DNA of 64,000 nucleotides from NCBI GenBank assembly GCA_000004985.1, contig GG738867.1; one strand, 5' to 3'. The position numbers and the translations under genes are program-made. The notes under the pieces are model-generated. The model saw only the letters and a list, made by a program, of their open reading frames with translations. It did no database searches and was not told the DNA's origin. Origin of the DNA: Naegleria gruberi (lineage: Eukaryota). Positions 20,366 to 58,729 of this stretch are shown here, piece by piece; positions within the stretch are counted from its first letter, which is position 1, and the number at the start of each line of letters is the position of its first letter.

Positions 20366-22912
20366 TTAAGCAATGGTACATTTCTTTTTCTTTCTGACAA
20401 TTCTTTCTTTTGGAGGATACATTTGTCGAAAATTACTCAATGAAGAAATGATTTTTGCACCACCCAACACATCAAAAGATCCACCTGATAATCCCTTCTT
20501 TACATCCCATACTACATGTTGAACTGTACAATGAATATTTTCTTGATAGGTGAAAGAGGCATGTGGGAATTTTGTTGTAAGAATTTCAATGATTGTTGGT
20601 TTCATATTTTCTAAATGAGCTAATTCTCCCACAATTATAAAATTGCTAGAGACTTCCACCTTCTTATTCCTCTCACGAATAATAGTTTCGTATTGTGAAA
20701 TTGAATTGAGTAGTGTGCTCAATATATTTGAACCTATATGAATTCTCTTCTGTTTTCCTACATATTTAGGTGTCCAAGTTTGTGAAATATTTACTGGTTC
20801 AATGTTTAACTCTGATTCATTGGTATCAATAGTTGGAGGAATATATGCACTCTTAAGAACATCCAAACTCTTTTCATTGCATTTAGATTCTTCATAAACA
20901 ATGTATTCTCTAACAGTTTCGTGTTCAATCACAGGAATTAAATAAACTCCACTTCTGTTGACTTTCAAAACAGTACAGGTTGGTTTTTGATAGTAAATGG
21001 TTCTAAGTTTTTCCTCATCCACATAAATTACATCAATTTCCAACTCGTCCTAATTAATGATATGTTATTTGTTGATAAATAGTGACAGAAAATACTTACG
21101 AGAATGTTGCTTACTTTTGAAATAATGGAATCTGTCCAAGATAGTGGAACTGCTAACAGCAACGGTGTGAAAAAGCTCTTTTTCAAATCGTCTTGATAAA
21201 GTTGAATAATTAGTTCTTTAAAATAGTCATAATCCAAGATATTCGAATTGCAATCAAGAATAAGATTTTCTTTGGAACAATCACGCTGGAAGACTTGATA
21301 TCTATCACCACACACGAGACTTTTAAATCCATAGGCCAGAACATTAAAGTGGGAACCAACTTTTTCTGCACACAAAGCTGGAGAAGAATAAAATAAAGCC
21401 AAAGATGAAAGTCCAAATCTGTAAAATCCATCAATAAAGTCCAATAAGATGACATCTGAGAATCTATTCTGATATGATCTCGATATAAAAGCATGATACC
21501 AATCGCCTATTGTCTGTTGATATTGATAAGTTGCTTGATTTTCAATTGAAGTAATAACTCCTTCCTCTATTTCTTCTTCGAAGTCTAGATTTTTAATTCC
21601 AATTTCTCGACCAAGTGGAACTATAGGATTGATTGGCCATTTTTGAGAGTATCTTTCTTTCCAAATGTATGAGTGTCTTGTAATGGCATTCAGTTCTCTA
21701 TTAAGCTTGAGAAATGTTTGAGAAATTTCTTCTGCTTTCATAAATGAAAATATGGCATAGAAAGCATCTTCTGAAATTGCATAAATTGTAATTGGTGAAT
21801 CTTCTTTACGAGCCGATTGTTCAATTCGAATGCTTTTTGATTCGTTTGTGTGTAAATCCTGAGCTTGAATAAATTTTTCAGTTGCTAATTTAACATTTCC
21901 TTCCTTCTCTAATTGTTCACTTTCTTCCAATAATTGTAAAACTTTTTGGTATTGACTATTTTCAATGTAATTTTGCTTGTAGACACTCTCAGAATCTATT
22001 CTCTTAAAAATCATTTCAGTTCTCACAACATATTTGAAACCTTCCTTTACATAATCTCCTGAGTGGTAAATATCATGATTAAATATTGCTATGGACCCAG
22101 CTTTTGGTTGAACTGTTAAGAGTTTCTTGAATTTCATTTTTGAAAGGTCTTCATTTGTTTCGTCTGGAATCTTTTTCCAAAAGGTAGTTCCGTAAGGAGA
22201 ATCATCTAAATAAATAAGAATGGTGAATATACTTCTCTCATTGTCATTTCTGACAAAGTGAGAATCCATGTGAGGTTTAAAGAAATTTCCTTCCTTATAT
22301 CTGTTAAATCTCAAACATTCGGATAATTCTATTGGAACCCATTTTCCATTGTTATCAAATCCATATGGCTTCACATTTGTAATATCTTCCTTCTTCATCA
22401 TTGGTCTATTTTCAAAATAATAACATTCAAAAACCACGAGACTGTAAAACCTACACTATCCTATTCCATAATATTTCAGCAACTTTCTTACTAGTTACCA
22501 CTACTCTCTCACTATTTCTATACTCTTTTGAATATTCTCTATCAATCGAATGATACCCCAATTCATCAGTCACATCGATCAAATCTTGACATTCCTCCGG
22601 AGAAAGAACTTGTTCCAACACGAACAAACAATCAAGACAAGTAAATTCTTGTTTCTCATTGCCATGATCATTTGATTGCTGATTATCAAATATTTCATCA
22701 TTATTTAATAAATCAATTTCATAAATATTCGGATCTATGTGAATTTTCTTGTGTGGAATTAAATAGTCAACCCGAGTTGGGGAAGTTTGATCTTTTTGAT
22801 GGGAAACAATGATTGGAACTCTGCGTTGTTGTTGATTTGAAGTAGTTGATAATTCTTCAGTTTCGTCCCAAATATTTGCTTGTAGATGTATGTGTGGTGG
22901 AACTCGATTCAT
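20366..22912 (-). CDS. Fusion protein: an N-terminal prolyl-4-hydroxylase-like 2OG-Fe(II) oxygenase domain, a central F-box-like motif and a C-terminal actin-related (Arp-like) ATPase domain. There is a 50-nt intron (21099..21050) and an apparent 1-nt frameshift near 22440-22452.
   Basis: First ATG at 22912. P4H motifs: LSPEECQDLI, HMDSH (HxD), IFNHDIYHSGDYV (distal His). F-box-like: PITIYAISEDAFYAIFSFMKAEEISQTFLKLNRELNAITRHSYIW. Actin-like: ILLDFIDGFYRFG, PLLLAVPLSW, GGSFDVLGGAKIISSLSNFRQMY (compare actin SVWIGGSILASLSTFQQMW). Intron CTC|GTAAGT...TTAATTAG|GAC is phase 0. The two N-terminal ORFs abut with a +1 shift and no room for an intron. Confidence 0.55.
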
Positions 22913-23547
22913 TTTTTTAATGCAATTGTCTTTAAAAAAATACAACAACTGTTTGAGGGAAACAGTTAGCGTCTTTGGCTAGAGGCCAGGTGCTAGCAGC
23001 ACAGAGGTTGATCAACTACCAAAACTTGAGCATCGGGTTTAGAAGTCAGAGCAAATCGCGTACTCATATTAGCATGGAGGGTAATATAGTACAACTACCT
23101 TACGGTTCAAAGGTTTAAAGTAGATTTGGGTTGATCAACATGGGCAAAAATAAAATAGCTAAGGTAATAGGAGAAGTGGAGAGTAATGATTTAATTATGA
23201 AAAGAATTTGAATGTATTGTAAAACGAAAACACATTGGTTCGTTGATATTGGTGAAGAATTAATTATTAGCATAAGACAGAATGTTCCATCCATTCCGCT
23301 CGGTGTCGTTGAGCAGGCACATAGAAGACTTCCTGGTTAACTCTTATAACATCTTTATTAAGTGTATTCCTATTTATGGATAATCAAAAGGTTTAGTTTC
23401 GTTCCAAATCAAGCTTGAAGGCTAGGCGATAACTCCAATGTCTCTACAAAAGTCCCCTTCATTTTAAATAATGATGTATCTGTGAAAGAAGCGCTGCTTC
23501 CTGCGAACTGTTTACAATTGGAGATCATTGACTTCACGTCTTTGAAG

Positions 23548-23592
23548 CAGGAATCTGAATAGATTCGTATTGTAAACGTAATAAAACATTAC
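23548..23592 (+). repeat. Solo 3'-terminal fragment of the same non-LTR retrotransposon family as the element at 37072..41386
   Basis: aatctgaatagattcgtattgtaaacgtaataaaaca matches the LINE 3' end at 41351-41386 (aatctgaatagattcgttattgtcgtaataaaaga) with a few indels. Confidence 0.4.
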
Positions 23593-23981
23593 CAGATTTT
23601 TTTAATGCAATTACAGAGATTGTAAATCCAAATTCGATGAATTGTTATTGCATGTTTTAATTATCTCAAATAATCTGAAAGGAAGAGTGTTTGATTTGGA
23701 AATTTAATACATTCGATTCTACGTCGACTCTAAATCCATTTGGTTGATATTTGAATAAAAAGAACAAAAATTTGTTTTCGGAAAGAGAAGTTGAAGTGTC
23801 TTGTGTATCTATTCCATCTTGTTCAGGCAGTCTTTTCACTTCCAAACTCAACCTTTACAGCCCAAATGAAAGTGTTCTTTTTTCATTTACTTGACGAAAA
23901 GGTGATGGCTCTGACATGTAGTGAACAACTGTCTACTTCAAGTGTCGCCTCGTTTAACAAACTTCAAAAACAAATCATTCA

Positions 23982-25115
23982 ATGTCTGTCTATGGAGACT
24001 TTCAAGCTCTCGTTGTTGACAACGGTTCTGGTATATGCAAAGCTGGTTTTGCTGGCGATGATGCTCCAAGAGCTGTCTTTCCTTCAATTGTAGGTAGACT
24101 AAAGCGACAGTCAATCATGATTGGAATGGGTGAAAAGGATGCCTATGTTGGTGATGAAGCTCAATCCAAGAGAGGCATCTTGACCTTAAGGTATCCAATT
24201 GAACACGGTATTGTTACTAATTGGGATGATATGGAAAAGATTTGGCATCACACTTTCTACAATGAATTGAGTGTTGCTCCTGAGGAACATCCAGTCTTGT
24301 TGACTGAAGCTCCTTTGAATACAAAGGCAAATAGAGAAAAGATGACTCAAATCATGTTTGAAACCTTCTCAGTTCCAGCCATGTATATTTCCATTCAAGC
24401 TGTCTTGTCTTTGTATGCTTCTGGTAGAACTACTGGTATAGTTTTAGAATCTGGTGATGGTGTTTCACACACTGTTCCAATTTTTGAAGGTTATTCGTTG
24501 CCACACACCATTTTGAGATTGGATTTGGCTGGTCGTGACTTGACTGATTGCTTGATGAAGATTTTGATGGAAAGAGGTTACTCATTCAACACTACTGCTG
24601 AAAGAGAAATTGTAAGAGATATTAAGGAAAAGCTCTGTTACGTTGCTTTGGATTTCAAAGAAGAAATGAAAGTTGCTGCTGAATCGTCTTCTGTTGAAAA
24701 GTTATATGAATTGCCAGATGGCACTGTTATAACAATTGGTAACGAACGATTCAGATGTACAGAAGTTTTATTCCAACCTAATTTCGTTGGTATGGAAGAT
24801 GCTGGTGTTCATGAAATAGCCTTCAACTCAATTGGTAAATGCGACATTGACATTAGAAAAGAATTGTTTGGAAATGTTGTCTTGTCTGGAGGTACTACCC
24901 TGTTCGAAGGTATTGCTGAAAGGATGACCAAGGAATTGACTGCTTTGGCACCAGCCTCAATGAAGATAAAGGTTGTAGCCCCACCTGAAAGAAAGTACTC
25001 AGTCTGGATTGGAGGCAGTGTCCTCGCGAGCCTTGCAACCTTTCAGCAGATGTGGATATCGAAAGAAGAATATGAGGAGGTTGGTCCTGGTTTTGTTCAT
25101 AGAAAGTGCTTCTAA
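23982..25115 (+). CDS. Actin, single exon, with a divergent N-terminus
   Basis: True ATG at 23982. Roughly 80% identity to conventional actin over 377 aa ([30 protein letters not shown] ... [40 protein letters not shown]). Confidence 0.9.
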
Positions 25116-25206
25116 ATTGGCTCTGTAAATCAGTACTTCCAATGAGTTTAAAACAAGTTGAATTTTCTGGTGGTGTATTTGAATAATGTTAAGATAATTG
25201 AAAAAA

Positions 25207-25324
25207 GACTACAGCACCACAGGTTCCCAAGTTGTCTCCAACCTCAGTACTGATGTGGCTCGACGATGCTTAACTTCTCAAATCGGACGGGATGAGGTGT
25301 ATTCATCGTGATATGGCCGTAGCC
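25207..25324 (-). rRNA. 5S rRNA gene (copy 1)
   Basis: Reverse complement is GGCTACGGCCATATCACGATGAATACACCTCATCCCGTCCGATTTGAGAAGTTAAGCATCGTCGAGCC...GGTGCTGTAGTC followed by a T6 Pol III terminator. Helix I pairs the 5' and 3' ends. Conserved loop-C/loop-E motifs CCCGTCCGAT and AGTTAAGC are present. Confidence 0.85.
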
Positions 25325-25775
25325 ATTCATCTTTTCAAAATCTTAATATTGAAATATTGAGAGAACATCAAGAGTCATTATCCCAAAATTCTATTGAAAA
25401 TTTGAAACTTGTTGACTTTAATGATTTTGACTTTTTTAAATTTTCTATTATTATTTTGTAAATTCTCAATTTCAGTAAGGAGGAGATGAAACAATTTAGA
25501 ATATATAACATTTAAATGAAAGCCATGAACAAACTACTGTTGAATATTAAGGTAAACTACCAAATTCAATTCATGTTTGAAAATGAAGTTGATTTCGCCA
25601 ACAATTGGAACGGAATTGCGGAGTAGATGAGGACAATTTATAAATAATACCATCCACTCTGGCATCCAACTCATTTTCCAAATGCCACACAAAACAACAA
25701 GTGGTAACCTTCTTAAAAATCATAAAACGTTGCAAATTCATGTTTCTTGTAATCAACTTGAAAGTAGTAAAAAAA

Positions 25776-28700
25776 ATGAGCAGCAACGAAGAAGCACCAA
25801 CTTTAATCAAAAATTCATCTCATAATCAAGATGATGAATTGGAGGATCTTCTCGATGCTCGGAATGAAAATGTTGTGGATGTGTTTAAGGAGGAGATTGA
25901 TGGGTCGTCTTCAGAGCCATTAGAGAATGGAGCTTCTTGGATATCACTCGTGTTCTTTTCATTTGCTGGAAGTTTGATGAGTCTTGGGTTTAGAAAGGCT
26001 GGTGAGAATTATTTGATAAAATTGATCAAACAAATGTTGAATCGAATTGGGATATTTGGTCAGTTTCAGATTAGAAAGGAGGAGGGAATGAATCATGGAG
26101 ATATTCCCAAGTTGGATGAAAGGTTCAAGGCAAACAGGCATTGTGAATTATTCGAAAGACAGTACAGAGAATTATATCATGAGAGAGGTTATTATAGTGA
26201 GGATGGAGGATTTAGGAAGAATTTTGGAACTTTATTGTTGCGAGTGATTGAGAGAGCTTATAGAAATAGAGGATTATATTCAATATCCTTGTGGAAGATT
26301 GCTGAAATGGCATGTTTGTACATGTCACCACTCATTCTCTATATTTTACTCGAGTCAATCAAGGTGGATGATTATGTGAAAAGTGCAATACCAGCAGCAA
26401 CTCAATTTTTAATACCAATTTCTTCCTACGGATTGTTGAATAATGACACTGTCATTACCTCCAATTACACAATGAACAACGAAACAAATTGGTTTCAAGA
26501 GAACTTGCCACTCTCAAATATTTTCTTCCAGTTGACTTTGGTAATTTTATTATTTACTTTCAACTCAATGGCTTCATTGTGCATCCATCAGTATTACTAT
26601 GCTACTTCAAAAATTTGGATTCCACTCATTGGAGCACTTCAAGGTTCAATCTTGCAAAAGCTGAATAGAATCAAGAGTGAGGAAAGAAGAAAATTCAAAA
26701 GTGGTGAATTGAACAATTTATTTGCCACAGATGCCAAAAGATTAGCCATGGATGGTATTGATATTCACGAGGCTTGGCTATTGCCATTGACATTAATTGT
26801 TGGTGTTGTATTGGTTTTCCTATTTTTTGGTTATAGCTCACTTGTTGGTATTCTTGCAATGGTAGTTTGTGGACCTATTCTTCCATTGTTGGGTAAATAT
26901 CAAACTAGTTTTGCTGCCAAAGCTGCCGAATTCAGAGATGAAAGAGTCAAGCACATTAGTGAGGTATTGAATGGTATTAGAATTGTCAAGTTTTATGTTT
27001 TTGAAGACAAGATGAAAGAAAAGGTGAATCAAGCAAGAGGGAAGGAATATTCACTCCTCAAAAAGTATATTACTGTATTGAGTGGATATTGCTTTACTTC
27101 TTCTTTGATTGCTGTTGTTGGAAGTGGAGCCACTTTTGTTACTTTCTATTATGTAGGTGGAAATTTGACCTTACCTAAAATGTTCACTGGTCTAGTGTTG
27201 TTTAGCACCTTTAGATTACCATTATTGTATTTGCCTTGGGTCTTTTCAAACTTGGTTTTGGCCTATGTGAGTGCTAAACGTATTGGTAGATTCTTGTTTT
27301 GTGAAGATACTTTGAATTTACCTCATGATCATGAAAATAAGGCGAATTTGTGGGATTTTGATTCAGAACATACTGAATTGTCATCAATTATGGATAATAA
27401 TTCAGCTATTGAATGTAAAGATGCATCTATTGGATGGTCAGAAGAGGATGCTCCTATTCTCACTGATTTAAATCTGAAAATTGAGAAAGGAAAGCTCTAT
27501 TGTGTAATTGGTAATACTGGTAGTGGAAAATCAACTCTGATCTCCTCAATTTATGGTGAATCTATTGTAAAGAGTGGAAAAGTTCAAGTTAACCCATCAT
27601 GTAATATTTCACTCAGTGATGAAACTCCATGGTTGATCAATGCATCTGTCATGGAAAATATAATTTTTGATAAGAATTTAACTTTTGACAGGGAAAGATA
27701 CAATAGAGTATTGGATGTGTGTCAATTAAGAGACGACCTCAGTCAATTCCCAAATCATGATCAAACCGAAATTGGTTTTTCTGGAATTAACCTTTCAGGA
27801 GGTCAAAAACATAGAATTAGTTTAGCCAGAGCATGTTATAGTAATTCTGAAATTATCTTAATGGATTCCACTCTCAACTCAATTGATGCCAAATTGTGTA
27901 GAAAGATTTTTAATGAATGTATTAGTGGATATTTGAAGGACAGAACTAGAATTCTCGTAACGCACTCGCTGCAGTTGTTGGAAATGGCTGATGAAGTCAT
28001 TGTTTTAGAGAATGGAAAATTGATTGCCAAAGGCCCTCTGAAGGATATTAAGGATTCCTATGACTTTTCCAAACTAATCTCTGAACAGGAAGAAGAACTT
28101 GAAACTGTAGAGAAAGAAGCAATTGAGAAGGAAAAGAAACAAGATGAAAAGAAGGGCCAACTTGTAGCTGTGGAAGATAAGAGCCACGGTGAAGTTAGTT
28201 GGGCTGTCTTTATGGCCTATATCCGTCAGTGTGGAATTTTCTTGACACTTCTCAGTCTCTTTATGAATCTATTATCTATTGGAGCAAAAACAGCAAGTCA
28301 AGTCTGGATATCTGTTATGAATAGTGACCTGCTTGGATTACCTCTGGGTACCTATGTTTGGGTCTTCTTCTCTTTTGGATTAATGGATTGTTTCATCATC
28401 TTCTTTAAGGAGTTAACTTTAGGTTTTGCTACTCTAAGAGGTTCGACCAATTTGCATAGAGGTATGCTGAATAACATTCTAAGAGCTCCAATACAATTCT
28501 TTGATCAGAATCCAGTCGGAAGAGTATTGAATAGATTTACTCAAGATTTAGAAACTTTGGATAATATGGTAATGCCTGCCTCTGATTTTATTGGAAATGT
28601 GTTGAATATTTTCTTTACCCTAACTCTGATATCTATAATCAATCCAATGTTTTTAATTGTGGTTATTCCAATCGGTTTAGCATTTTACTTTATTCAAGAA

Positions 28701-30036
28701 TATTATAGAACTACCTCAAGAGAACTTAGAAGATTGGAATCAATCTCAAAGAGTCCAGTCATGTCACATTTCAATTCATGCCTCGAAGGTGTCAATACTG
28801 TTAAGGCATCGCTTGTACATTCGAATATTTATGCAGATAGTTTTTCAAAGATTGACTTTGCCAACAAACATACCTTTAACAGATTTATGATAAACAGATG
28901 GTTGGGAGTAAGAATTCATCTCAGTAAGTATCTATTCACATTAATAATGTTTCTCATATATTTCACAGTTTCTCAATCAGTTTTGTTCTTCACAGCAATT
29001 TTTGCCATCATTGCCAAAAATACACAAGATATTAGTCCAGCTTTCCTTGCCTTGACTATTTCAAACTCTCTCCAGTTGAGTGATTGTTTCCAAGGTCTGG
29101 TTCGTTCTTTTGTTGAAGTTGAAAGTAATATGACTTGTGTGGAGAGAATTGTTTATTATGCCCAGAGTATCTCACAAGAAGCTGCCTATGACAAAGAAGG
29201 AGATCCAACCACAACCGAATGGCCAACTAAGGGACATATTCAATTAGATAAATTCTCAGTAAGATACAGAGATGATTTAGATCCAGTTTTGAAGAATCTT
29301 GATTTGGATATCAAAGCAGGAACCAAAGTTGGTGTTGTAGGAAGGTAAGTTGTTTAATATTTCTTAACATTTCTAATAATCATAATAGAACTGGAAGTGG
29401 AAAGAGTACTTTATTGATTTCACTGTTCAGATTCCTCGAAGCTAACGAAGGTAAAATCTCCATTGATGGTCAGATATTTCGAGTATTGGTTTGAGAGCTT
29501 TACGTAAAGCTTTATTAATCATTCCCCAACAACCTGTTCTATTCTCTGGATCTATTCGATACAATTTGGATCCTTTTGATGAATTTGAGGATTATGAAAT
29601 TTGGAATGCCCTCGAACGAGTTCACATGAAAGAGAAGATTCAACCACTCCAGCTCTCATTCACCGTTACTGAGAATGGTAGCAATTTTTCAATTGGTGAA
29701 AGACAATTGCTTTCCTTGAGTAGGTGCATTTTGAGGAAGGCAAAGATTATCATCTTTGATGAATCGACTGCATTTGTGGACCATAATAGTGATGCATTGG
29801 TTCAGAAGGTTATCAGAGAGGAATTTAAAGATAGTACCATCATAACTGTTGCTCACAGATTGGACACCATCATTGATTCCGATAGTATTGTCTTTATGAA
29901 GGAGGGTGAGATTATTGAGACTGGAAGTCCTAAGGATTTACTCTTGGATGAAAGATCGAATTTCTCCTCTCTTGTGAGAGAAACTGGTAAACAGTACTCC
30001 GATCATTTGAAGAAGCAAGCTTTTAAACTTCCTTAA
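25776..30036 (+). CDS. ABC transporter, ABCC/MRP subfamily (TMD-NBD-TMD-NBD). Exons are 25776..29344 and 29389..30036; the intron is 44 nt. There is an apparent 1-nt deletion frameshift at about 29471-29473 inside NBD2.
   Basis: The ORF-track start at 25701 is GTG; the ATG is at 25776. NBD1 has Walker [10 protein letters not shown], signature [14 protein letters not shown] and Walker B IILMDS. Splice GGAAG|GTAAGT...CATAATAG|AACTGG restores the NBD2 Walker A ([14 protein letters not shown]). NBD2 has signature [13 protein letters not shown], Walker [10 protein letters not shown] and H-loop TVAHRL. Expected GKISIDG[12 protein letters not shown] is split across two frames. Confidence 0.8.
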
Positions 30037-35762: not shown

Positions 35763-37057
35763 TTAAGCTATTTTATGAGAGAGTGAATGTCTTTTGCCTA
35801 TAACTTTGATTTCGTGAGATGAAATATCAAGTCCGAAAACTGAATCAAACGACTTGTCAATGGAGAGCTTGTCCAACAAAGATTTTCTGTCAATTCCTAC
35901 CTGTTGCAAAGTTGATTCAGAATTATCTTGAAATTGATTATTTTTGTAATCTGTGCAAATCCAAATATCTAAATTACAGTTAGATTTTTCGAATACATGC
36001 ATTGGAATCAACTCGGTAGTACCTTCCAACATGCTTTCATCCAAAGAGGGGAAGTATTGACAAAACTCAACTCCTGGCTTCATATCAATAATAACACCTT
36101 TGAGCTAATAATGATTTCAATGAATGTTAATTCTCAGCAAATTGTGCAGCTTACCTGTTTACAGAGGAGGAAATTGGAATCAAAAGATGGATGAGAGGTA
36201 TCACTAAAGAAAATATTCCACGTTGTGTTCGGCACTTTGTAACTCTTTACAAATCCAAGACAATCCACCAATTTGGTCTTATAACTTTCAATAATTTTGA
36301 AAGTATTCTCAGTAGAGGGTTCTCTCATTAACATGGGTCTCAATTCAGGGAACTCCTGAGCAATTTCATTCTTTGTGTAGAGTTCATCTCCCTTGATGAG
36401 AGCAAGAGTTTGACCCAATTGAAAGGCAAAACTCTTAATCATATCCTTATTATTGACAAGTTCATAAAAACTAGAATCTGAAATGTCAATTATATCCTTC
36501 AATGTTTTTATATAATGTCCAAAATCATTTGATCTCAAAGTTTCCTTAATTTGAGCTCTGTACTTTTTATATTTGGTGAAATAGGTGAGAATAGCTCTAC
36601 ATGCTCTAACAACTTTCAAAATGGTAACTCTTTCAACAGTGTTTTTGATTGGATGTTCAAATTCTTGCTTTGTTAAATGATTAGCATAGGTTTTCAACAA
36701 TCCATTATTGGCTTCATCTTCATTTCCTATTTTAATCAAATTCCAAAATAATTATCATCAAATAATTCATAATTTACCTTTGTAAATCTTTACAATTATT
36801 CCATCCTGTATCAGTGCAACATTTCTATTCTCCTCAATTTCCTTTCCATTTTCAATAATTTTCACACTCCGACAAAATACAGAACAATCCTGAAATGATG
36901 GAAATGGATTCGGATCCACAATGAAATAGAGAATATCCTTATCGGTTGAATTTTCTGAACCGTGAATAACATATCCATCACATTTAATTTTATGTGCCAC
37001 CATAGATTCAGTCCCCATGTGAGAGTCAGCAATTAGTTCTGGTTTATTGTCTTGCAT
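35763..37057 (-). CDS. Three-exon hypothetical protein (about 398 aa), possibly with a longin/roadblock-like N-terminus. Exons are 37057..36778, 36726..36155 and 36104..35763.
   Basis: True ATG at 37057. Introns of 51 nt (G|GTAAAT...AAAATAG) and 50 nt (CAG|GTAAGC...CATTATTAG) join three track ORFs in phase. No family recognised. Confidence 0.45.
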
Positions 37058-37071
37058 TTTTTTTTGATATT
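37057..37071. repeat. Target-site duplication (5' copy) of the LINE insertion: TTTTTTTTTGATATT
   Basis: Exact 15-nt direct repeat with 41387..41401. Sequences outside the repeats differ (ttgca vs aaaga upstream; cgtcc vs gtaaa downstream). Confidence 0.65.
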
Positions 37072-37756
37072 CGTCCTTCTAAAAAAATGCCTCAACATGA
37101 CCACCCTCCGGATACGGAAGGGAGTACTCTGCTCGCTAACAGAATCTTTGTGTTAGAGAGAGCATTAGAAACCTCCCAAAAGGAAAACACATGTCTCCGG
37201 GAATCTATTCAAAATTTTGTAAATATTATAAGCGACCACATACTAAATAATAATAATAACGGTCCAATCACACTTGTAAATAATCTAATGGATGAGGCAA
37301 ATAAGTTTACATCTATTACACAAAAAAGTGGAAATCCATCAAATGATGGAAATCTATCAAATAATAGAAATCTATCAAATTGTGGAAAAACTACTGAATC
37401 GGAAATTATTCCAGATGACAGTGGTAAAACTAAAAATAGACCTGCTACATATTCAGAAATAACAAGGTCAACTCCTATTAAAAGTCAACCAAATATCAGA
37501 TGCAACTAATCACTCTGGTACTTCAAAATATAAATTAGTTAAATTATCACACACAGATAAGGATGAAATGGATGAATTCTGTAAGAAAAATATTTCTCTT
37601 ATTGATAAGCACAAAAACCATTTCAATTTCTATTTCAAACCTTCTATTGAGATTTTAGATCTTAAAATAGAACAGAAAAATAGATTATTTCCTTATTTAC
37701 CTACTATTAATTCTACTAATAATATTGCAACAACTAAATCAGTTGCTAAAACAACA

Positions 37757-37796
<40 letters not shown>

Positions 37797-37840
37797 TTAA
37801 TAATAATAATATTAATAATAATAATAATAATGAAAATAAT
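37757..37840. repeat. (AAT)n microsatellite encoding a poly-Asn tract inside LINE ORF1
   Basis: Visible tandem aat units with occasional att interruptions. Confidence 0.8.
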
Positions 37841-40734
37841 CTGTTAATATTACTCACCAAAGCTTTTTCAAGCCTTGTTGTAGGATTGGCAAATAATAAT
37901 GTAATTCCATTAGATAATAACTTAATGGAAATTGTCAATATTACTAATAATATAAATAATGTAAATAATACTAACTCTGTAATGATAGATGATGATTTGA
38001 TTTCAACATCATCTAATGAATCTACTCAACCTTGAGTGGAACTACCACTAGTTTAAGACTTGCATGCTACAATGTTAACGGTCTATACAAGCATGCAGTC
38101 CATAAATCTGTAACTCAAGAATTGAAATCTATGTGTTTAACACATGGAGTTCATATGATGAGTATTACAGAAACACACGTTAACACTACTGAATTAGAAA
38201 TTAAAGTTAGAAATTCTGGTTCAGGTTATTTATTATTTAACTCCCTTATGGGTCGATCTAAAGGCTGTAAAGGAACAGCAGTTATGCACTTTTTAAATAA
38301 TCATAGAAAGCGTAACATTACCAATAATAATTTAGTACCTGGAATCTTACAATGGACAAGATTTGAAAGCAGGGGAATTCCAATTAATTTATTTACTATT
38401 TATTTAAGTGGCAGATCAGATGATTATGAAAATGATCAAGAAGCCATTAACAGTTTTATCAATGCTGTTTTAACATGTAAAGATGAACATATTATTTTAA
38501 GTGGGGATCTTAATATTGATACTCAAAACCCCACTACTACAAGAGAAAAGGATTGGATTTGGATTCTTGAAATGTTAAAATTGACAGAATTCAAAACACC
38601 AAATTATACATGGATTAGACGAAGTCAGGGAACTTTAATTAGATCTAGACCTGACCATATCTTTGTCTCAAAGAATATTAGAGTGGTAAAGGAAGTAATT
38701 ATGACACCTTTGACCACTAATGATCATGTCCCTTTTTATTTAGATTTAGAATTTAAATCTAATCTTACTTGGAGAACTTACTTTAGTAAGAATAAGAGGA
38801 AAAGAATGTACGAAGCAATTAATAAGTGTAAAATTGACAATTTTCAAGAGCTGAATCAAGCAATTGAGGCTCAAATAATTAAATATGGATCCAAAGTAGA
38901 TAGATTAGGAGTTGGAAGAATTTCTACAGCATTTAAAGAAGAAATTCAAGATTTAGAGGATGAAATATTATCTAAAATTAATAACCCTAATATTCCTCAA
39001 TCAGAAATACAAGAACTACAAACACTCCTAAAAGAAACACATATTAATAATGCAAAAGAGATTAAGGAAAAACTTATAGATGAATTTAATGATAACTCTT
39101 CATCTAGAATGTATCAATTTGATAAAATGATACACTCTAACCAAATTATGTGGAAAGACCTTAACTTTGAAGAAGAAGAAATAGTGGATTACTTTACAAA
39201 CAAATTTACCTCCACTAATCAACAACCAACATTCACACCAAGTAATTCAACTATCAAAGAAGGTCCAGATTGGAGCAATTCGATTCATATTAAAGAGCTA
39301 CAAGATGCTCTCAAACGAATGAAATCAAACACTTCTGGGCCTGATCTAATCTCACTTGATATAATTAAACATCTTACAGAAGCTAATCAAGGAATCCTCT
39401 TAGAAGAATATAATAGATGTTTAAGAGATGGTGATATTCCACAAAATTGGAAACAAGGATGGGTAAAACTCATTCCTAAAAGAGAAATTAATACCTTAAG
39501 TGATATTCGCCCAATTACTATTTTACCAATATTTTACAGAATATTATTTAATATTATAGCATTTAGATTGAGATCTTGGGCATCAACTCATATTAATGTT
39601 AGACAACAAGCATTTATTACAGACAGAAATACTTTGAATCATGGTGTATTACTCTCTGCCTTAGCAATGAAAACAAGGAAAAGGACTTTTATTTTAGTGA
39701 ATTTAGATATAGAAGGGGCGTATGATGCAGTCGAATTACCTGTCATCAAAATGGCCCTAGACCACTGCAAATACCCTTCAGAACTTACTCAATTCATTTT
39801 AAATGCTTATGCTAACCATGAACTTCAATTAGAAATTGATAATCATCTCTCTGATAAATTTAAGAAAACAAGAGGAATACCACAAGGCTGTCCACTGGCC
39901 CCTCTTATTTACGATTGTATTACCCAATTAATAATTGACAAAGCAATTGATAAGTGGAAGATACCAATCAAACCAGGCAAACTATGTGCAAATGATATTG
40001 CACTCTGCTGTTTTGCTGATGATATGAATGTTGTATGTGACAGATATGCCAAATATAATGAGAGACTAGACAATATTCATGATTGGTTACATCAATTATT
40101 ATTTAAATTGAATGCTAAGAAATCAGTAGCAACTCTATTACCTAAAAAGAGCACAGTCTCACCTAAAATCAAAGGTACTCCAGTACCTAAACAGAAAAAC
40201 CTTAGAGTACTTGGCCATTACCCTTGGGATGATACTTTGGTAACACAAGACATCCAATCCAAGATAGACAAATTCACAAAATCATTAAGATTTTTACCAT
40301 TATTCAAATTACAGCCAACAAACCTTAAAATAATTATGCATGCTAAAGCAATCAGCCTATTCACTCACCTCTCAAAAATCAATATAATCCCTTTAAAGAA
40401 AGCTCAGGAAATAGATCGTGCAATTAGAGGTGCAATCAGACGTAAATTATTAATGGACAGAGCAACTCCAACAAGTTTCTTTCACCTGCCATTAGAAGAA
40501 GGTGGATTAGGATTACCATCAATTGAGGAATTCTCTGAAAGAATGAATTTAAGAACTATGAATTTAATCGCCAATAATAAGAATAAGTTAATAAGAAAAG
40601 CTTTCAAACATGGTATCAAACATTGTGAGGAAACTAAAGATAATATGTATGCTAAATGGTTATCTGTACTTTAAGAATATAATCTCACATTTGTGCAGAA
40701 TGATACGAACTTTAGAATAGCCGGNNNNNNNNNN

Positions 40735-40774
40735 NNNNNNNNNNNNNNNNNNNNNNNNNNNNNNNNNNNNNNNN
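40735..40774. other. Assembly gap (run of 40 N)
   Basis: Literal n characters in the sequence. Confidence 0.99.
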
Positions 40775-41386
40775 ACTCAGAATCACACCTCCTTGTTAAG
40801 GATGGTGTTGTCATCTTCAATCATAAGAAGATGACCATAACAAGACATTTAAGTGTAAGACATAATAAGATGAATGAAAACCCTAACTTTATTCTAAACC
40901 AAAGTTGGGATTCTCTTAATGTGCAATACCTTAAAACTCGTCTTACTCCTAAAACTAAATACTTTATATGGAGAAATTCCATCAATGCCCATATCAATTT
41001 TGGTAAGGGTAAAAGTTTCTGTTACGATTGTGGTACAGAATCTGATTTATTCCATTACATTCATGAGTGCCCTGGCTTGGATAGTGCCAGGTATTTTTGT
41101 CAGTCAAAGATATCTGATATTCTTGAAGGGAGAGAGTGCTTACTTTCTCATTTTCAATTCAAACCAGAAAAGCATCACCATGCATTACATTTCCATCATA
41201 ACGGAATCACCTCTTTCGAAGATGGATACATGCAATTCCATAAAGACATCGCTAAGAAGTGGCCAGAGATCCAAGGTGCCATTTCTAACTTTGTCGGCCG
41301 TTCCTATTCTAACTATTATATTGACTCCAAATAATTTATATAACCTATGAGAATCTGAATAGATTCGTTATTGTCGTAATAAAAGA

Positions 41387-48506: not shown

Positions 48507-48574
48507 TTAAGAAAAATTCCTTACAATCCTAGGTGTTGTAAAAGATTTAGTACTCAGAAATTAACATAATGAAT

Positions 48575-49083: not shown

Positions 49084-49758
49084 TTATTGCTTGTTAGCAA
49101 AGATACATCCACCAGTTCCAGTTTGACCACTGACAGGACACTTATCACACTTTTCAACAATTCCATGTCTTGAATTATCATCAACATAATATTTGGCAAA
49201 CAAATCATTTTGAATCCACAACAACTTGTTGAAAGCCAACAATGTCTTGACTCTTTGTTCTTCACTCAAATCCTTACAAGTAGCAATAGTTCCCAACAAG
49301 ACATCAGAAACATAACCAAATAAGGCATTGATGTGAATATAATCAATAATAATATCCTTATTACCAGCCTTGGCAGTGTGAATCTTACCAACCCAATCCA
49401 AATAATTAACAAAAGCCTTTGATGTATAATCAGCAGTGACAAGCTTGACAAGATACTTGCTCAACATGTCCTTTCTGAATCTGATTTGTTCACTAGCCTT
49501 ATCATCTAATTCATCCAAATTTTCTTCCATCTTTCCTTCAAATTGATCATTTCTAACAAGGAAAGTTCTTTTAGTAACATCAAAACTGAATAACTTTTTG
49601 TAAACCAAATCAACAACAGTTGGAACCAAAGGAGCCAAAACTGTAGCAGATTCATGAATATACTTGATATCTTCTTCACCAAAACCAATAAATTTGGTAA
49701 CATAGCTGAATCTATATTGCAAGTCAGTGAAAAGTTGCTTTTCTTCGATAGTTTGCAT
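49084..49758 (-). CDS. Globin-fold protein, protoglobin/globin-sensor-like
   Basis: True ATG at 49758. Helical pattern LAPLVPTVVDLVYKKLFSFDVTKRTF...YLDWVGKIHT...IHINALFGYV resembles protoglobin-type globins from memory. Tentative. Confidence 0.4.
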   Translation of the reverse strand: MQTIEEKQLFTDLQYRFSYVTKFIGFGEEDIKYIHESATVLAPLVPTVVDLVYKKLFSFDVTKRTFLVRNDQFEGKMEENLDELDDKASEQIRFRKDMLSKYLVKLVTADYTSKAFVNYLDWVGKIHTAKAGNKDIIIDYIHINALFGYVSDVLLGTIATCKDLSEEQRVKTLLAFNKLLWIQNDLFAKYYVDDNSRHGIVEKCDKCPVSGQTGTGGCIFANKQ

Positions 49759-50949: not shown

Positions 50950-51130
50950 TTCGTTTTATGTATTCAAAGAGTTTCTTCAAATTTCAAATGTTTTTCATGA
51001 TTATTATGATGTTACATGTAAGGGTAAGTCCAAAGTAAATGGTGGTCAATGGGTATGTTGGAGGTTTCGGCTGAGTTTGGATCTGCCAACATCAGATGAT
51101 TCCTTCAGCAACCAAAGGGAATTCAGTACA

Positions 51131-51200
51131 ATCAATGGCTGAGCGGGCCACCAATGGTTGGGCGGGCCACCAACAACATTTCGCCGCACCAACAACATTT
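51131..51200. repeat. GC-rich inverted-repeat arm 1. Its partner lies at 52021..52100. Possible terminal inverted repeats of a non-autonomous DNA transposon.
   Basis: gcgggccaccaatggttgggcgggccaccaacaacatttcgccgc aligns with the reverse complement of 52025-52095 (gccacgccaatggtttcccgccacgccaaaacctatttg). There is also an internal direct repeat caccaacaacattt[cg][ga]ccgc. Confidence 0.3.
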
Positions 51201-52020
51201 GACCGCCTCAACTGCTACAGGCGCAAAGGTAGCAGGAGGCCTCTACCGGTCAACATTAAAAACATGGAAGACTGATTTTGTCATCATTCAATATGGAGTC
51301 TGTATTCAGCTTGATACAGTGCGAATTGTTTCTTCATTGATTTGGGATGGAATTTCAGACAGAAATTGAGTTGTTGCTCTCCGTTATTGTTCACTTAATC
51401 AAAGTCCCAAGCCTACGAAAACTAATCGAATGCACTTCATCCACACTCTCATCCTCCAACTCATCATTGGTTCATCAACACTCTCCTAGACCAAATCTCA
51501 ACCAAAGAAGCCGAACATTGTTGTATCTGTTGGAAGAGAACTTCTTAAAGAATTTCAAACCACTCTTCATCGTTTCTTAATGTCAAAGTTGATCAATTAC
51601 TGGCAAACATGTTGTCCTCACCTATTATCAGAAATGTAACATCATGATAAGGATTTTGTTTGCAACTAAAATCATCAATAATGGTCAAGATGACAGAAGA
51701 AGAATTAGAAGAAGAACTTGAGCGTACTTTTACCCTTTCAGATTTGCAATAATTAAAGCCAGCCAAGATATTATACTGCCCAAACCAAAATCAAATCCTC
51801 AATCAATATCAGAACTTCCGCTGAGATCAGCCAAGACCTAAAACGGAAACTCCACCAACAAGAAGAAAAGTCATAGAACCCAACAACATACCACATACCA
51901 CCAAGCACAGAAGAAGATATTACTCATTTAATGATGCAGATGTGGTGTATAAGGTAACAAGAGAAGTAGAAATGCTACTAAGCATATTGGCATGACTAGC
52001 ATTAGCTTTGTTTTGTTGGA

Positions 52021-52100
52021 GCGGCCAATTAATGTTGGCCCGGGCAAATAGGTTTTGGCGTGGCGGGAAACCATTGGCGTGGCTGGCTTTTATTTACTCC
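52021..52100. repeat. GC-rich inverted-repeat arm 2. Its partner lies at 51131..51200.
   Basis: See arm 1. Also contains the local near-palindrome ggccaattaatgttggcc. Confidence 0.3.
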
Positions 52101-52398
52101 CCCAGCAACAATTGGCTACCTCAACAACCAAAAAAAGTACCAGAAATCATCTACCGCCACCAGTACACACGATTTTGGAGTTACCCTCTTTGGAAAGGAT
52201 GGAGTGTCAAGTAACGAAGGCGCTTCAATTCAATCAACTAACCAATCAATATCTGAAAATGGCTAAAGAGTCGCAGATTTTTTGATTGACCAGGAGAATC
52301 CTTTGCTAGGTCAAAAATATATGAAATTCAAAAAAAGTCTTATTAACATCTTCTAAAAAAAAAAGAATAATCACCTTAATTTGGCAATAATTGGTAAA

Positions 52399-52487
52399 AG
52401 GCGACTGAGGGAATTGAACCCTCGACCCTCAGTTATCTCGACATTTCTGCCTACAAGACTGATGCACTGCCACTGTGCTAAGCCGCC
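52399..52487 (-). tRNA. Intron-containing tRNA, anticodon most likely UGU (Thr), with a 17-nt intron after position 37
   Basis: Reverse complement: GGCGGCT-TA-GCAC-AGTGGCA-GTGC-A-TCAGT-CTTGTA[GGCAGAAATGTCGAGAT]A-ACTGA-GGGTC-GAGGG-TTCAATT-CCCTC-AGTCGCC-T. Acceptor, D, anticodon and T stems all pair. U33 and A37 are in place. Followed by a T4 terminator. Confidence 0.6.
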
Positions 52488-52707
52488 TTACAATCGATGA
52501 ATTCACTCAAAAATAAATGCAAAACAATTGCTAAAATAAAAGTGTTTATCTTAAATTCCTCATTCTAACTCTCTATTCCAATCTTTACTCATTCACATAT
52601 TCACAAACACAAATCAAAAGAACTTTAATTGCCAATTATCTAAGTTTGTGAGCTCATGTCATTCGTGCCAACACTAAATTATATATCAAACTTGAATTGT
52701 CATCAGA

Positions 52708-54456
52708 TCATTCGAATGGTTCATAGGATGAAGTATTATTCTCTTCCGATGTTTGTTGATTCAGAGATGTGGTGAGTGTTGACGTCTCACAGGAATTTGT
52801 TGACTTTTCCTTATTGAAACATTTGTAAAGTGTTAAAAATTCTTCCTTATCAAATTCCATAAAGGCCACCCCAATTCCAAGCAAAGTACTACTCAAATAG
52901 GTTGATAATGAGATGAAAGTCAAAATACCAGGTCCAATAAAAGTTGGTTGGGACAATGCCAACACAGCATAGGACAAGGAAATGGCAAATAGAATTACTG
53001 ATGAGAAAATGATAAATCTAACATGCTACATGTATCATTTAAATCCATATTCCAAAATATTAGCTTACTTACATTTGTTTGCACTAGGTTAATATCTGAT
53101 AATTGTTTCATTACTCGATGAGTATAAAGTGAGGCACAAATAAATACTTGATTTTTCATGTTAATTTTTCAAATTGGCTTGGAACTTACCACACAAGGCC
53201 GCAAATGAAAAAACTGACAAGTAAATGTAATAGAACATTTGAAATTGTCCCATGTCATTTGGAAATGCAACAGAGGCAACTATTGGTGAAATTATTCCAA
53301 CTGTAAAAAAGAGTAAACCTAGGAAAATGTAGCAAACTCTTACTGAAATAGTTATTTTACGAGCTCTCGCTAACTCAACAATTCTATACAAGCCGAAAAT
53401 CCAAGCAAATAAACCGAATATAGAAATAATATTAGAAAGAGCTGCAAAAATCAAGGTAGTCTTAGAATAAGAATCTGATGCCAGAATCTGCACACTTGCT
53501 ATTATCTGAAATAGAAATCCAATCACAACACAAGAGGTTGGAATCAAATTAGCAAACCTTTTAGTTTTGACAACTTTTCCTAATTTTGGAATAAAACCTG
53601 CAAAAAAGATAATTACAGAGAGAATGAAATGTGTAAATGTCACACCAATTCTCGTTATTAAATTTGCAATCATATCATTCATTCCAAATGTGCATTTGGG
53701 TCCAAACGATTTGCTCTCCACACACGAGCATATATAGGAATAGGTTCCCAATAAAGAACTCTTCACAATTTGACTATTATTAACCAAAATGGGAAATCCA
53801 AAGATTGTATATCCACAATAGAGTATTGATCTTGGAAATCCAAGAATCATTTCTCTAGCAATTGAATCTCTCGGCTGGCATGTACCTTCCAAGATTCTCC
53901 TCTTGTAATTCCTCGATTCCTCTCCACAATATTGACATGCATTAATCCAATCAGTTAACATGGTCTCTCCATTCGTTGAATTGTAAATAAAATCATTCAA
54001 AGAACCAATTCCATTATTCAACATCATCTGCGACCGATCACACAACAATTCAGTGCACGAACTATTCATAATTCTCTCCCAACGTTTCACACTTTGGCAA
54101 ATATCAAAACTCTCTTTCGGAAGCAGTGCAATATCATTAATAAATTCATAGAACTTTACATGAATATTCATTTCATAATATTTAGCTAGTTTTACATTTT
54201 CACATGAAAAGAAGGGTGAAATTTCTTCTGAATTTAATGCATGTTTTCTTAATTCTGCACCATTGGTCATCAATTCGGAGGCATTCCTACAATTTTCAAA
54301 GGAATTTAATTGTGTATAATTTTCATTCCACTCAGTCGTTGATGATTTGTTAATCATCATGAATAATAGAACAATTATTTCCGCAAACACAACAATAATA
54401 TTCTTCCTATTTGTGATCAATGCTGGGCTGGGTGTGATCTTCCCTTGTCTCGTCAT
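52708..54456 (-). CDS. 7TM receptor-like protein with a Cys-rich N-terminal ectodomain (paralog A). Exons are 54456..53190 and 52997..52708; the intron is 192 nt.
   Basis: True ATG at 54456 with a signal-anchor. About 12 Cys in the ectodomain, including DWINACQYCGEE. Five TM helices in exon 1 and two in the last exon. Splice G|GTAAGT...TCATCAG|TA, phase 1. Confidence 0.55.
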
Positions 54457-54482
54457 TTTTTTAGGCTTTTTATAGATCTATT

Positions 54483-56196
54483 TCAGTTCTGTGGTGAAAT
54501 GTCGTCTGATGTGGTGGTGAGAGGAAGTGATTCTTCTTTGGTGGGAATATTATCTATATAATTATCACTATTAACATTTGACTGTCTCTTGAATTTACAG
54601 GGAAGGTACATTTCTTTGAATTCAACTGAATCAAATTCTACAATGATTAAACCTAATGAAACGATGGAGAATAGAGCAGAAACTAGAGAGTAGATACCTG
54701 AGGACCACCTATCGTCAATGATTGAATTAATGCAGAGAATGTGGAGCAAATATCCAAGACAAACCAGAACAAATGCAACAATTACAAAAATGGAAAATTT
54801 CAAAAACTTATACAGTTAATAAAAGAAAAATAGAGAAACATACTGGTGATTGCATCAAATTGATATCAGAAATCTTTCTCATCTCAACATAAATCCAAAC
54901 AGATGAGACAATAATTGCTTGTAAAAGTTAATAGAATCAATTCATCCATGAAACATACCAATCACACTAACAATAGAAGCTCCTAATAAATAAGATTCCA
55001 AAGCATTTACAAAATAAATTGCATAAACATTTTGAGTATAGATTGAGGCAACTATAAAAGGAAGAATAACTCCAAATGAGATTGAGGCAAACAATGGAAT
55101 TACATAGAGGAAAATTGTAGCTCTCAATGATAAAGGACTATGTCTAACTAATCTAATCCAATTGGACAACCATGAAAATATGGCCAATTGTAAAAAGTTG
55201 AAAGACAATTGATAAGCAATTAAGAAAATAAAAATAATGAGCGAATTTGAAAATAACACAACTCCAAAGCAAATACTCCAAGATCCTACAAATATTCCAT
55301 TGTAAATACTTGGTATAATATTCAGATACTTTCTATCTCTGAGCATTCTCTTTGTTTTTGGAATGATACTTATAAAAGTATTGAGAATAAAGAGAACTAA
55401 TGAAGAAGCAAAGAAAAAGTAAATTGATGCCATGTCAAAGTTTGAATCTTCACCTAAGTAACATTTGGATACCTGAAAAGCAACTGCACAGATACAGGAA
55501 ATCATTCGTATATTTTCCAAACAAACTATTCGATTGTACTAGAAATGGAATTCCAAATGATTGAGTTCCACAAAAATAAATTGATGTTGGAAATTCACTA
55601 ATCATTCTATTGGAGAGTTGATCTCGCGATTGGCAACTCCCAGCAGAAACTCTTTTCTTAAAATGTTCACTTCTTCCAAGACAATACTGACATCCATTAA
55701 TCCAATCTGTTAAATTATTCGTTCCATTAGTATTTAACATTAAATATTCCTGTAAATTCTCAATTTTCCCATCATAATCACACAACAAATCAATACACGT
55801 CCTATTAAGTCTCGATTCCCAATAATTCAACTGCATACAAGCATCCACATCCCCAAAATACGAATCAACCCTAAATTCACCACTTTTTCCCTGTATTTGT
55901 TGAATAGTTTGAATTGTATAAATCATCATTGAATTACACTCAAAAGAGAGTGGTATCTTTGGTTCTCGGAATGTTCCCTTCCCAAACTCAACAGGATTAA
56001 ACATGTACGGTGATGAATGATTACAACCGGAAAAGATTGGAAAATATTCTTCTTGACCATTCACGGCATATAATTGATCATGATAATAAATGAATAGGAA
56101 GAGGAGGAGGATCGAGAGGATTATTCGGAATCTATTGTTGTTTGGATAGAAAATGCTTTTCATCGATTCCAATTCATTTCTGTTTTGGAGTTTCAA
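54483..56196 (-). CDS. 7TM receptor-like protein (paralog B). Three coding segments: 56196..~55478, ~55477..54942 and 54803..54483. An apparent 1-nt insertion in a TTTT run near 55477-55480 shifts the frame, so this is a possible pseudogene or a sequence error.
   Basis: Same architecture as A and C: DWINGCQYCLGRSEHFKKRV, CSC...SKC, KTKR after TM1, multi-TM body and a TM-containing last exon. The two overlapping track ORFs read the same nucleotides in adjacent frames. Confidence 0.45.
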
Positions 56197-56382
56197 TAGC
56201 TATTGAAATAGGTTACTTGATTGTGTTATGCATTGATTGGTTAACCTGGATTCTGTCTATTTTTGAATAACAAGGAATGCATTCCAAGTTATTTTGTTTC
56301 CCGCCACTTTAGTAAAGAGTTCATCAGATAACATCTTGTATCTGAACAATGTCAGTTTCTTTCAAAATCCATAATTAAAAAA

Positions 56383-58729
56383 ATGAAAGTGTCACCAGAG
56401 GTTAATACTGTACTGAGCTCCCAAGAAATTGACGTTTCTGACAAGCAACTGCTTCTCCAAGAAAAGAGAAGAAAATTCTATCAAGGAGTAGTTCCCTTAA
56501 ATTTATTCATTGTTTGCACCATTTCCTTATTGATTTTGAGTGGTTGCATATTCGTTTGGGTTTCGTCTTTTATCGTTACTAGCAATTCAATAGAAAATTT
56601 GAATGCCATGTTTATTGAAGAATCTGGTCAAAAGATCATTAAGAGTTTGACTGGTTATCTGGACCCAGCTGCAAAACTTACGAAAATGTTGGCCAAAGAT
56701 TGGAATTCTGGCTCGGTTAATCTTACTCAATTGAGAGAGTACTTATTTCCAAAATTCCAACAATTTGAAACGAGTGGTTGTGGTTTCTTTTTCAATGATA
56801 CCTATTCTTATAGATACACTTATACAGTGAGTGGTACTGCAAGTAATCCAGTTGTAGGTAAGTTGTTTCTTTTTTGAATATGGAAGGAATTTGAAACTTT
56901 TCAGTTTATAGTCAACAACCTTATGGTTTCATAGGTTCCATTCGTGACATGATTAATATCACAACAGGAGATGTTATTAAATATAAATACCAAGTAATTT
57001 ACACTCCAATTATCATGGTTGACCAAGACTATTGGATTTATCTTTCTAAATATACTAAACAGACTGGGCAAGAAGGTGTTCTGGGAGATCCTTATCTTGC
57101 ACCAGGTGCTAGTATGACAATCTATTATGCACAATGGGTATACGATCAAATATTGTGGAAAACTCAAAAGCAAAAGAGAATTATTGGGCTTGCAAAGATT
57201 AATCTTTCTCTTGATTCCATTGTCAATTATCTATCCAAGATTAAACTCTTAGGTGACGGTTATGTAGTAGTCACATTAAACTCTGGACTGGTAATTGGTG
57301 GTTCCATAAACACAACCGTCAATGATGGTCTGACATCTGCTCATATTTTTGATATTGAAACCAGAGGTGCTGGAAAGTTGATTAAGAAATTCTATGAGAA
57401 TAATGGAAATACTTTCCTAACCTTCCCAGAGAATATGAAGTTAAGCAGTGATGGAGTTGGATATATTATCACTCCAATCAAGTTTAAATATGAGAATTTA
57501 GAGTGGAATATTTTCTTTGTCTTGTATGAATCTGATGTGAACGAGGCATTAGTGATTAGCTCTTCCGTGAGTGTTGGTGTCACAGTGGTGATTGTCATAT
57601 TTGGTATTACTGCAAGTTTGTGCACTGGTTGGATTGTTTCTCGACCAATGAAATTCTTAGAAAATCAATTTGAATCAATTAGAATATTAGATTTGGAAGC
57701 AGTTAATTTGAGTAAGATATCCATGTTCAGAGAAGTTGATTCAATCTTTAACAATCTATATGATACAGTTTCATGGCTCAAGGAAATCAAATCTTTCATT
57801 CCAGATTATGTGTTTGAGCAAATCAAACAAAACCAGGAAGTTGAATTGCATAAAGGACAGGAAGTTAAAGAAAAGAATGATCACCTTTCTGAATCATCCT
57901 CCAGAAAATCAGTTTCATCCTCCAGAAGTGCAATGACGGCCAAACATTCTTCAGATAAGAGTTCATTCAAGAATCAACATCAATCGCTTTTCAAAATGGG
58001 TTACAGCAAGAAAGGGGTAGTATTCATTCATGCTAAATTGGAGAATTTAGTTGAGCAAGAGGTGGATTACATTTCAAACTTTTTCAAGGGATTCATTTCT
58101 GCAATATCAACAGTTGTAAAGGTTAATCAAGCAACTTTACATGTCATTTCATGTGAAGAGATTCAGATTTCACTAACTTCCAACTCTTTAGATGAGAAAA
58201 CCTATGAGAAAGGAGTTGACATTGCTTTAAAGATTGTTAAATCTTGCGACTCAAAAGTCATACCAAGAATTATTCAGAATTTGCCTCCAAGTATGATGTT
58301 AAAATAGTAACAGATTCAGAAAATATGCCACTTGATAAGTATATTAATCGTCCACTTGATATTATTGAAATGAAACAGCAGAGAGTGAGGATACATGAAT
58401 TAATTGATAAGAAGAATACTGATAATGATGAATGGTTGTACGAATTAGAAAACTCTAAAAAGAATAATAAGTATGCAGAATATTCCAAAATATTTGAAAT
58501 ATTCCATAATGATTATTGGAATGGAAAGGATGTTGCTGTGGAAGTGGAAGATTTGTTATTGGTTTTGGATCGTTTTAGAAATGTAGAGTTTTCTGGAAGG
58601 AATGACTTGTCGTGTGATGAATTATCAAACTTTTTAACAGATCTACTGCAAGTTACTGATCCACGAGAAGCAAATTCTAGATCCAGTACCTATGCTAAAA
58701 AATTGGTCCTAGACCTGAAGGTAATATAA
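56383..58729 (+). CDS. Receptor-type membrane protein: TM1, an extracellular sensor-like domain, TM2, then a cytoplasmic region with degenerate class-III nucleotidyl-cyclase-like features. Exon 1 is 56383..56857. There is a 77-nt intron. Exon 2 runs 56935..58729, with an apparent 1-nt frameshift near 58285-58295.
   Basis: True ATG at 56383. TM helices LFIVCTISLLILSGCIFVWVSSFIV and VSVGVTVVIVIFGITASLCTGWIVS. Splice G|GTAAGT...TTTCATAG|GT, phase 1. The cytoplasmic part has GVVFIHAKLENL ... KYDV(K)IVTD motifs reminiscent of cyclase homology domains; the functional call is weak. Confidence 0.4.

Follow-up and report, generated by a model that had tools for sequence, protein, structure and literature searches.

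Do four frame breaks within conserved domains of neighbouring genes reflect one underlying cause? This question is raised by a 64,000-nucleotide stretch of Naegleria gruberi contig GG738867.1 (assembly GCA_000004985.1; hereafter, the window), in which the original prediction placed four single-nucleotide frameshifts: in a P4H (2OG-Fe(II) oxygenase) gene (site 1), in the second nucleotide-binding domain (NBD2) of an ABCC-type ABC transporter (site 2), in one of two tandem seven-transmembrane (7TM) paralogs (site 3) and in the gene for a cyclase-like membrane protein (site 4). Three-frame translation makes a frame change visible at all four places. The evidence base for the present analysis was sequence comparison. 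As judged from it, the four sites differ in kind: they consist of one intron and three heterogeneous net deletions of 1, 5 and about 94 nucleotides (nt), and the description as a single-nucleotide shift holds for site 2 only. Real and very recent deletions may account for sites 2-4, with the chances for and against this cause evenly poised.

A conserved intron in the P4H gene

The residues VVFECYYFEN, which had been taken for conserved sequence beside a frameshift in the P4H gene, are the read-through of a 49-nt segment, 22406-22454, found by an intron scan. On the minus strand, ATA GT is followed by this segment (GTAGGT...AAAATAG) and then by A CCA ATG, such that the spliced junction reads WNRIVPMMKKEDITNVKPYGF, compared with WSRIVPFLKKSDIDGVKPYGF in the homolog P0004 and WERLKNFLEKEDLNGKKP in P0006. 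In an alignment of six homologs, two of which (P0004 and P0006) span the junction, VVFECYYFEN lies opposite a gap in all. Furthermore, the intron has a counterpart (GTAAGT...TTAG) of identical codon position and phase in an orthologous contig from ENA (L001). Removal of this segment together with the intron at 21050-21099 leaves a coding sequence of 815 amino acids (aa) with a terminal stop only, the product of which matches Pfam 2OG-FeII_Oxy_3 (E=3e-8). The length of the segment falls within the 40-111 nt range of introns in the window. On this evidence, site 1 is a conserved spliceosomal intron that was missed earlier, not a frameshift; the original prediction was misled because the intron happens to be stop-free in one frame.

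The C-terminal extension of the P4H protein is roughly 500 aa long, and neither an F-box nor an actin domain was detected in it by Pfam. Precomputed domains of the relative P0003 are 2OG-FeII_Oxy_3, F-box-like and Actin, and in L001 the P4H open reading frame (ORF) is followed by an actin-like ORF.

Three net deletions that interrupt reading frames

The closest comparison is available for site 3. A search of 5.8 billion cluster representatives with the repaired protein of 7TM paralog B returned a single sequence, P0009, that passed the E-value cut-off among 8000 candidates scored. P0009 is 97% identical to paralog B and is encoded by the metagenomic MEGAHIT contig k127_341694 (L002; ENA ERZ929261, project PRJEB11402), which is colinear with positions 52447-56726 of the window (4.3 kb). 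The two are 98.7% identical over aligned bases and are separated by 57 mismatches and 11 indels. The ORF of P0009 is intact, reading CSCFSGIKSKCYLGED across site 3 in the single-frame context ...LYLCSCFSGIKSKCYLGEDSNF..., whereas in the window the frame shifts after CSCFSG. At the DNA level, L002 has CAGGAATCAAATCCAAATG and the window CAGGTATCCAAATG, and the 5 nt that are lost make up a single unit in an imperfect AATC/AAATC repeat. The frame break had been assigned to a TTTT run; the break itself is real, but the lesion lies at 55471/55472, 4-5 nt downstream of the run, and TTTT is identical in the window and L002. Because the outgroup, paralog A, has a longer in-frame form at this position (CSCVESKSFGPKCTFG), the in-frame state is ancestral and the window carries the deletion; the alignments show this ancestral state to be present in a close relative. 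The paralogs share a Cys-rich N-terminal ectodomain, have two downstream intron positions in common, and B keeps both splice sites. Neither paralog matched a Pfam family, and together they look like a lineage-restricted receptor-like family. The 32- and 40-nt indels relative to L002 lie just upstream of paralog B, and one of them removes an upstream ATG.

At site 2, the claim that the NBD2 motif is split between frames was borne out, with a net change of -1 nt on which the ABC_tran profile and the ortholog-like protein P0013 (1465 aa) agree. Positions 20-47 of the ABC_tran hidden Markov model are matched in frame ahead of the site and positions 51-137 in the next frame. In the window, the letters are GAT GGT CA GAT ATT, without a homopolymer. 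One base of a codon is missing, because P0013 (IDG-V-DISQMGL) has exactly one residue where the window has two bases. The residues on either side adjoin in the ABC_tran profile, which leaves no room for an intron. The upstream ORF (25644-29345) is open over 1234 aa and the downstream ORF over 189 aa, the protein matches Pfam ABC_membrane and ABC_tran, and the C-terminal 186 aa are 52% identical to P0013. Profile and homolog together confirm a net single-base deficit in NBD2, which is a genuine frame break in the sequence as given; whether it is a real lesion or a consensus error is about an even choice for this site taken individually.

Searches for closer sequences over this region gave no near strain: the best match to the ABCC C-terminal exon in a full-library HMMER search was 52% identical, a scan of JGI metagenomes with the repaired NBD2 reached top identities of 41-45%, and the exact product of the actin gene next door, looked up as a route to independent contigs that span sites 1 and 2, had no record. 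As a separate observation, P0013 reads GLVGR-IHIHNNLGCNEL-GSGKSS, with a 12-residue insert in Walker A exactly where the 44-nt intron of the window sits; the insert resembles an intron that was left unspliced and carried into the translation of the gene model.

The lesion at site 4 is of another size. The cyclase-like protein has a weakly Cache-like N-terminal half, a transmembrane segment and a degenerate cyclase-homology C-terminal half, and was compared with an N. gruberi predicted protein (P0007; 41-50% identity to the window) and a second, more distant homolog (P0008). In a tblastn search, residues 33-477 of P0007 matched 56934-58271 and residues 510-646 matched 58274-58648 in another frame. 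Only two bases separate these blocks, and in pairwise and three-way alignments about 32 residues (GVSIGDGYVGNIGSSTARYFSMVGSVSEQAKT) have no counterpart in the window. This core is present in both homologs (...YVGNLGSHSFRFYS... in P0008), and a search for it elsewhere in the window returned noise only. Past the junction, the frame is conserved from SEFASKYDV onward (SQLASKFNV in the homolog). Thus, the break reported between QNLPP and KYDV is real, although its junction, 58271/58274, lies a few codons away, and the alignments identify it as a deletion of roughly 94 nt (3n+1) and not as a single-base shift.

Conceivably the cyclase-like gene is still alive, having lost its degenerate core and acquired a new end (...IIQNLPPSMMLK*), with the downstream ORF as a leftover. 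In favour of this, a long and well-conserved ORF (50% identity to P0007 across 453 aa) lies upstream, and the lost domain is weakly cyclase-like even in N. gruberi, where residues 454-522 of P0007 match Guanylate_cyc at E=0.004, below the Pfam cut-off. Against this, the 162-codon downstream frame is open in 33%-GC DNA and contains strongly conserved motifs, which would be unexpected if it had long been untranslated, and survival of the gene in this form is improbable.

Could the breaks be bypassed during expression?

The statement that no viable intron fits had to be given up for site 1 but stands for sites 2-4, which remain frame breaks: no normal-length, frame-restoring GT-AG interval that spares conserved residues was found there. 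The GT-AG candidates at these sites are 5-29 nt long, as expected by chance, and would remove GKISIDG, KCYLG or KYDVKIV. A 42-nt GT..AG interval at 58236-58277, ending at TTATTCAG, was worked through by hand and rejected, as it leaves the frame unchanged and loses the conserved VKSCDSKVIPRI.

Very short introns of 13-29 nt, programmed ribosomal frameshifting or RNA editing might nevertheless restore the products. Frame-restoring GT..AG segments do exist, of 19 and 25 nt at site 3 and of 17, 23 and 29 nt at site 4, but among 45-nt coding windows of this DNA, 25-29% contain a mini-segment of suitable length class by chance alone, and excision would cost site 3 the conserved KCYLG and site 4 the conserved KYDVKIV. 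All verified introns are at least 40 nt long with a GTAAGT-like 5' end. Tiny introns of 13, 17, 19, 23, 25 and 29 nt were rejected: they are expected by chance, would take out conserved residues and fall outside the intron range of the window. A -1 ribosomal slippage at site 2 was likewise rejected, since neither an X XXY YYZ slippery heptamer nor a homopolymer is found at 29465-29480. Moreover, the frame runs unbroken through sites 2 and 3 in relatives, and site 4 simply lacks about 32 codons. A bypass of this kind is exceedingly improbable.

Recent deletions or assembly damage

Sites 2-4 share several features: all are net losses, each is the sole defect of its gene, and good splice sites and frames without premature stops lie on either side. 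At all other ORF junctions in the window canonical introns are present and no frameshift is needed, and no cellular gene of the window contains an in-frame stop or an additional unexplained frame change. For these three sites, the choice offered by the original prediction between assembly errors and recent pseudogenes was the right one; for the intron at site 1 it was not. The pattern is predicted both by very young, possibly allelic, deletions and by assembly drop-outs.

According to the first of these accounts, real and very recent deletions in this lineage would break three genes, each a member or an apparent member of a gene family, and the broken copies may be null alleles of a multi-copy genome that were picked by the consensus. 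A disabling lesion relative to an intact relative was found in each case, with L002 and P0009 as the reference for site 3 and the more distant P0013, P0007 and P0008 for sites 2 and 4. The indels that distinguish the window from L002 measure 1, 1, 3, 5, 6, 6, 9, 9, 12, 32 and 40 nt. One natural process could cover all three lesion sizes, because numerous natural-looking indels, 1-40 nt in size, separate the organism from its nearest relative. Except for site 3, the coding indels are all multiples of 3, and both 1-nt differences lie in non-coding A/T runs, such that the 4.3-kb comparison shows no excess of 1-nt coding indels, which supports real deletions.

Several findings weigh against real deletions. 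For a compact genome, a load of three disabled genes out of roughly 28 within 64 kb would be high. The lesions are so recent that the ORFs downstream of sites 2, 3 and 4 (189, about 200 and 162 codons) remain open throughout, which is how assembly or consensus errors would look as well. Finally, all three lesions are losses and the window is shorter than L002 at 8 of the 11 indels, a possible hint of drop-out, although 8:3 is not significant. As to relaxed constraint, the three genes carry no further lesions, and the synonymous to non-synonymous counts relative to L002 (5:7 for paralog B, 11:9 for paralog A) comprise too few changes to separate A from B and give no clear sign of long-term decay of B.

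These same observations would suit the alternative that bases or segments were dropped at sites 2-4 by the assembly or consensus and that the genes are really intact. In its favour, there is exactly one lesion per gene, nonsense codons are absent from all cellular genes, the downstream ORFs are not only open but conserved, as seen in the identity of the ABCC C-terminus to P0013 and in the motif DEWLYELENSKKNNK of the cyclase-like protein, and the scaffold does contain an N gap. However, only one of the three lesions is 1 nt long, none lies in a homopolymer run of 3 or more, and the loss of 5 or about 94 nt from unique coding sequence is atypical of consensus errors. A simple homopolymer-error process is disfavoured because the lesion sizes are heterogeneous. 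The signature of an unpolished long-read assembly, with an indel about every 15 kb, was not recovered: the single 1-nt lesion is not in a homopolymer and the TTTT run is unchanged in L002, an Illumina-type contig. That contig, which comes from a close relative, covers site 3 only, where it is in frame. The N gap had been cited as a pointer to poor polishing; it is the only one of the scaffold, and because it falls in a repeat, a LINE-like retrotransposon, it is uninformative on base-level accuracy. We therefore regard errors at all three sites as rather unlikely, while still a serious competitor to real deletions.

Gene content of the window

The window has an overall GC content of 33% (range 30-37%), and both strands are dense with long ORFs. 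Introns have GTAAGT-like 5' ends and AG 3' ends, and those besides the ones in Table 1 are about 47-64 nt long. Pfam matches include two RhoGAPs, a BTB protein, a protoglobin, a DENND11-like protein, a leucine-rich repeat protein, a kinase with an EGF-like segment and the ABC transporter. P0007 is the only named homolog that was recovered, which fits a heterolobosean related to Naegleria as the probable source. The protoglobin-domain gene has a single exon and matches Pfam Protoglobin at E=4.5e-40, and a poly-Gln stretch precedes the domain; archaea and bacteria are the better-known sources of this family.

The LINE-like element is a non-LTR (long terminal repeat) retrotransposon with endonuclease and reverse-transcriptase domains. 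In it, an ORF at 37006-37506 comes ahead of an ORF of 190 aa rich in poly-Asn runs (37463-38032). The latter overlaps by 13 nt with ORF2, which encodes the endonuclease and an RVT_1 domain (E=3e-28) and has an in-frame TAA at 40672-40674, followed by a Cys/His-rich tail. The N gap occupies 40725-40774.

Table 1. Positions of the genes, introns and frame breaks discussed in the text
Feature	Position	Strand	Description
P4H (2OG-Fe(II) oxygenase) gene	20366-22912	-	Three exons, intact, long C-terminal extension; homologs P0001-P0006
Site 1 intron	22406-22454	-	49 nt, GTAGGT...AATAG, phase 2, canonical GT-AG
P4H intron	21050-21099		50 nt
Actin-like ORF, divergent	23982-25115	+	Recognised by eye only; ~1 kb from the P4H gene, on the opposite strand
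ABCC-type ABC transporter gene	25776-30036	+	Long exon, 44-nt intron, last exon; intact except for site 2
ABCC intron	29345-29388	+	Canonical, 44 nt, GTAAGT...ATAG; inside the NBD2 Walker A region between GVVGR and TGSGKST; joins the frames
Site 2	29471-29472	+	Net -1 nt; CA in place of one codon between ...KISIDG and DISSIGL...
7TM paralog A	52708-54456	-	Intact tandem copy, used as outgroup; colinear with L002 gene 2352-3818
7TM paralog B	54483-56163	-	Cys-rich N-terminal ectodomain, multi-pass membrane region; intact except for site 3
Site 3	55471/55472	-	5-nt deletion and adjacent A>T
Cyclase-like membrane protein gene	56383-58729	+	47-nt intron near 56858; broken at site 4
Site 4	58272-58273	+	Deletion junction: ~32 codons and frame change
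Intron	6516-6555		40 nt
Intron	8213-8252		40 nt
Intron	8675-8753		79 nt
Intron	11762-11802		41 nt
Intron	17894-18004		111 nt
LINE-like retrotransposon	37006-41331	+
Protoglobin-domain gene	49084-49758	-

Implications

If the three deletions are real, the load of disabling indels would be unusually high, with fresh null lesions in 3 of about 28 neighbouring genes, a reading that we hold with a little less than even confidence. Such a load fits with the divergence from L002, which is rich in indels (11, compared with 57 substitutions, over 4.3 kb). It may stem, for example, from allelic decay, should this heterolobosean amoeba be polyploid or mostly clonal, or from a very rapid turnover of its receptor and transporter families. 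Real lesions would also provide a small data point on the speed with which family members are lost in Naegleria-like amoebae. In practical terms, one false alarm has been corrected, in the form of a missed intron, and the exact coordinates and sizes of three gene-breaking lesions are now available to annotators, who may repair the genes or mark them as pseudogenes. A simple label of unpolished long-read assembly does not fit the evidence.

Comparison with known systems

Sites 2-4 represent ordinary gene decay or assembly damage, which are well-known categories that involve no new mechanism. Site 1 resembles the short GT-AG introns (about 40-60 nt) of compact protist genomes in its GT-AG ends and 49-nt length, as well as in its conserved position and phase and its homolog-matching junction. 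It differs from the commoner introns of the window in its 5' site, GTAGGT instead of GTAAGT, and is otherwise in no way unusual.

Draft-assembly indel errors, of the long-read or 454 homopolymer type, are like sites 2-4 in that they break the frames of otherwise perfect genes and in that all three are losses; unlike such errors, the lesions involve no homopolymer, two of them extend over several bases (5 nt and about 94 nt), and no excess of 1-nt coding differences is seen relative to L002. Young pseudogenes or null alleles in multigene families share with sites 2-4 the single disabling deletion per gene without other damage, the intact ortholog (at site 3), and the kinds of families that are hit, here tandem 7TM paralogs, ABCC transporters and cyclase-like receptors. 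They differ in that the three genes have accumulated no nonsense codons and paralog B has no clear non-synonymous rise, such that decay is only putative.

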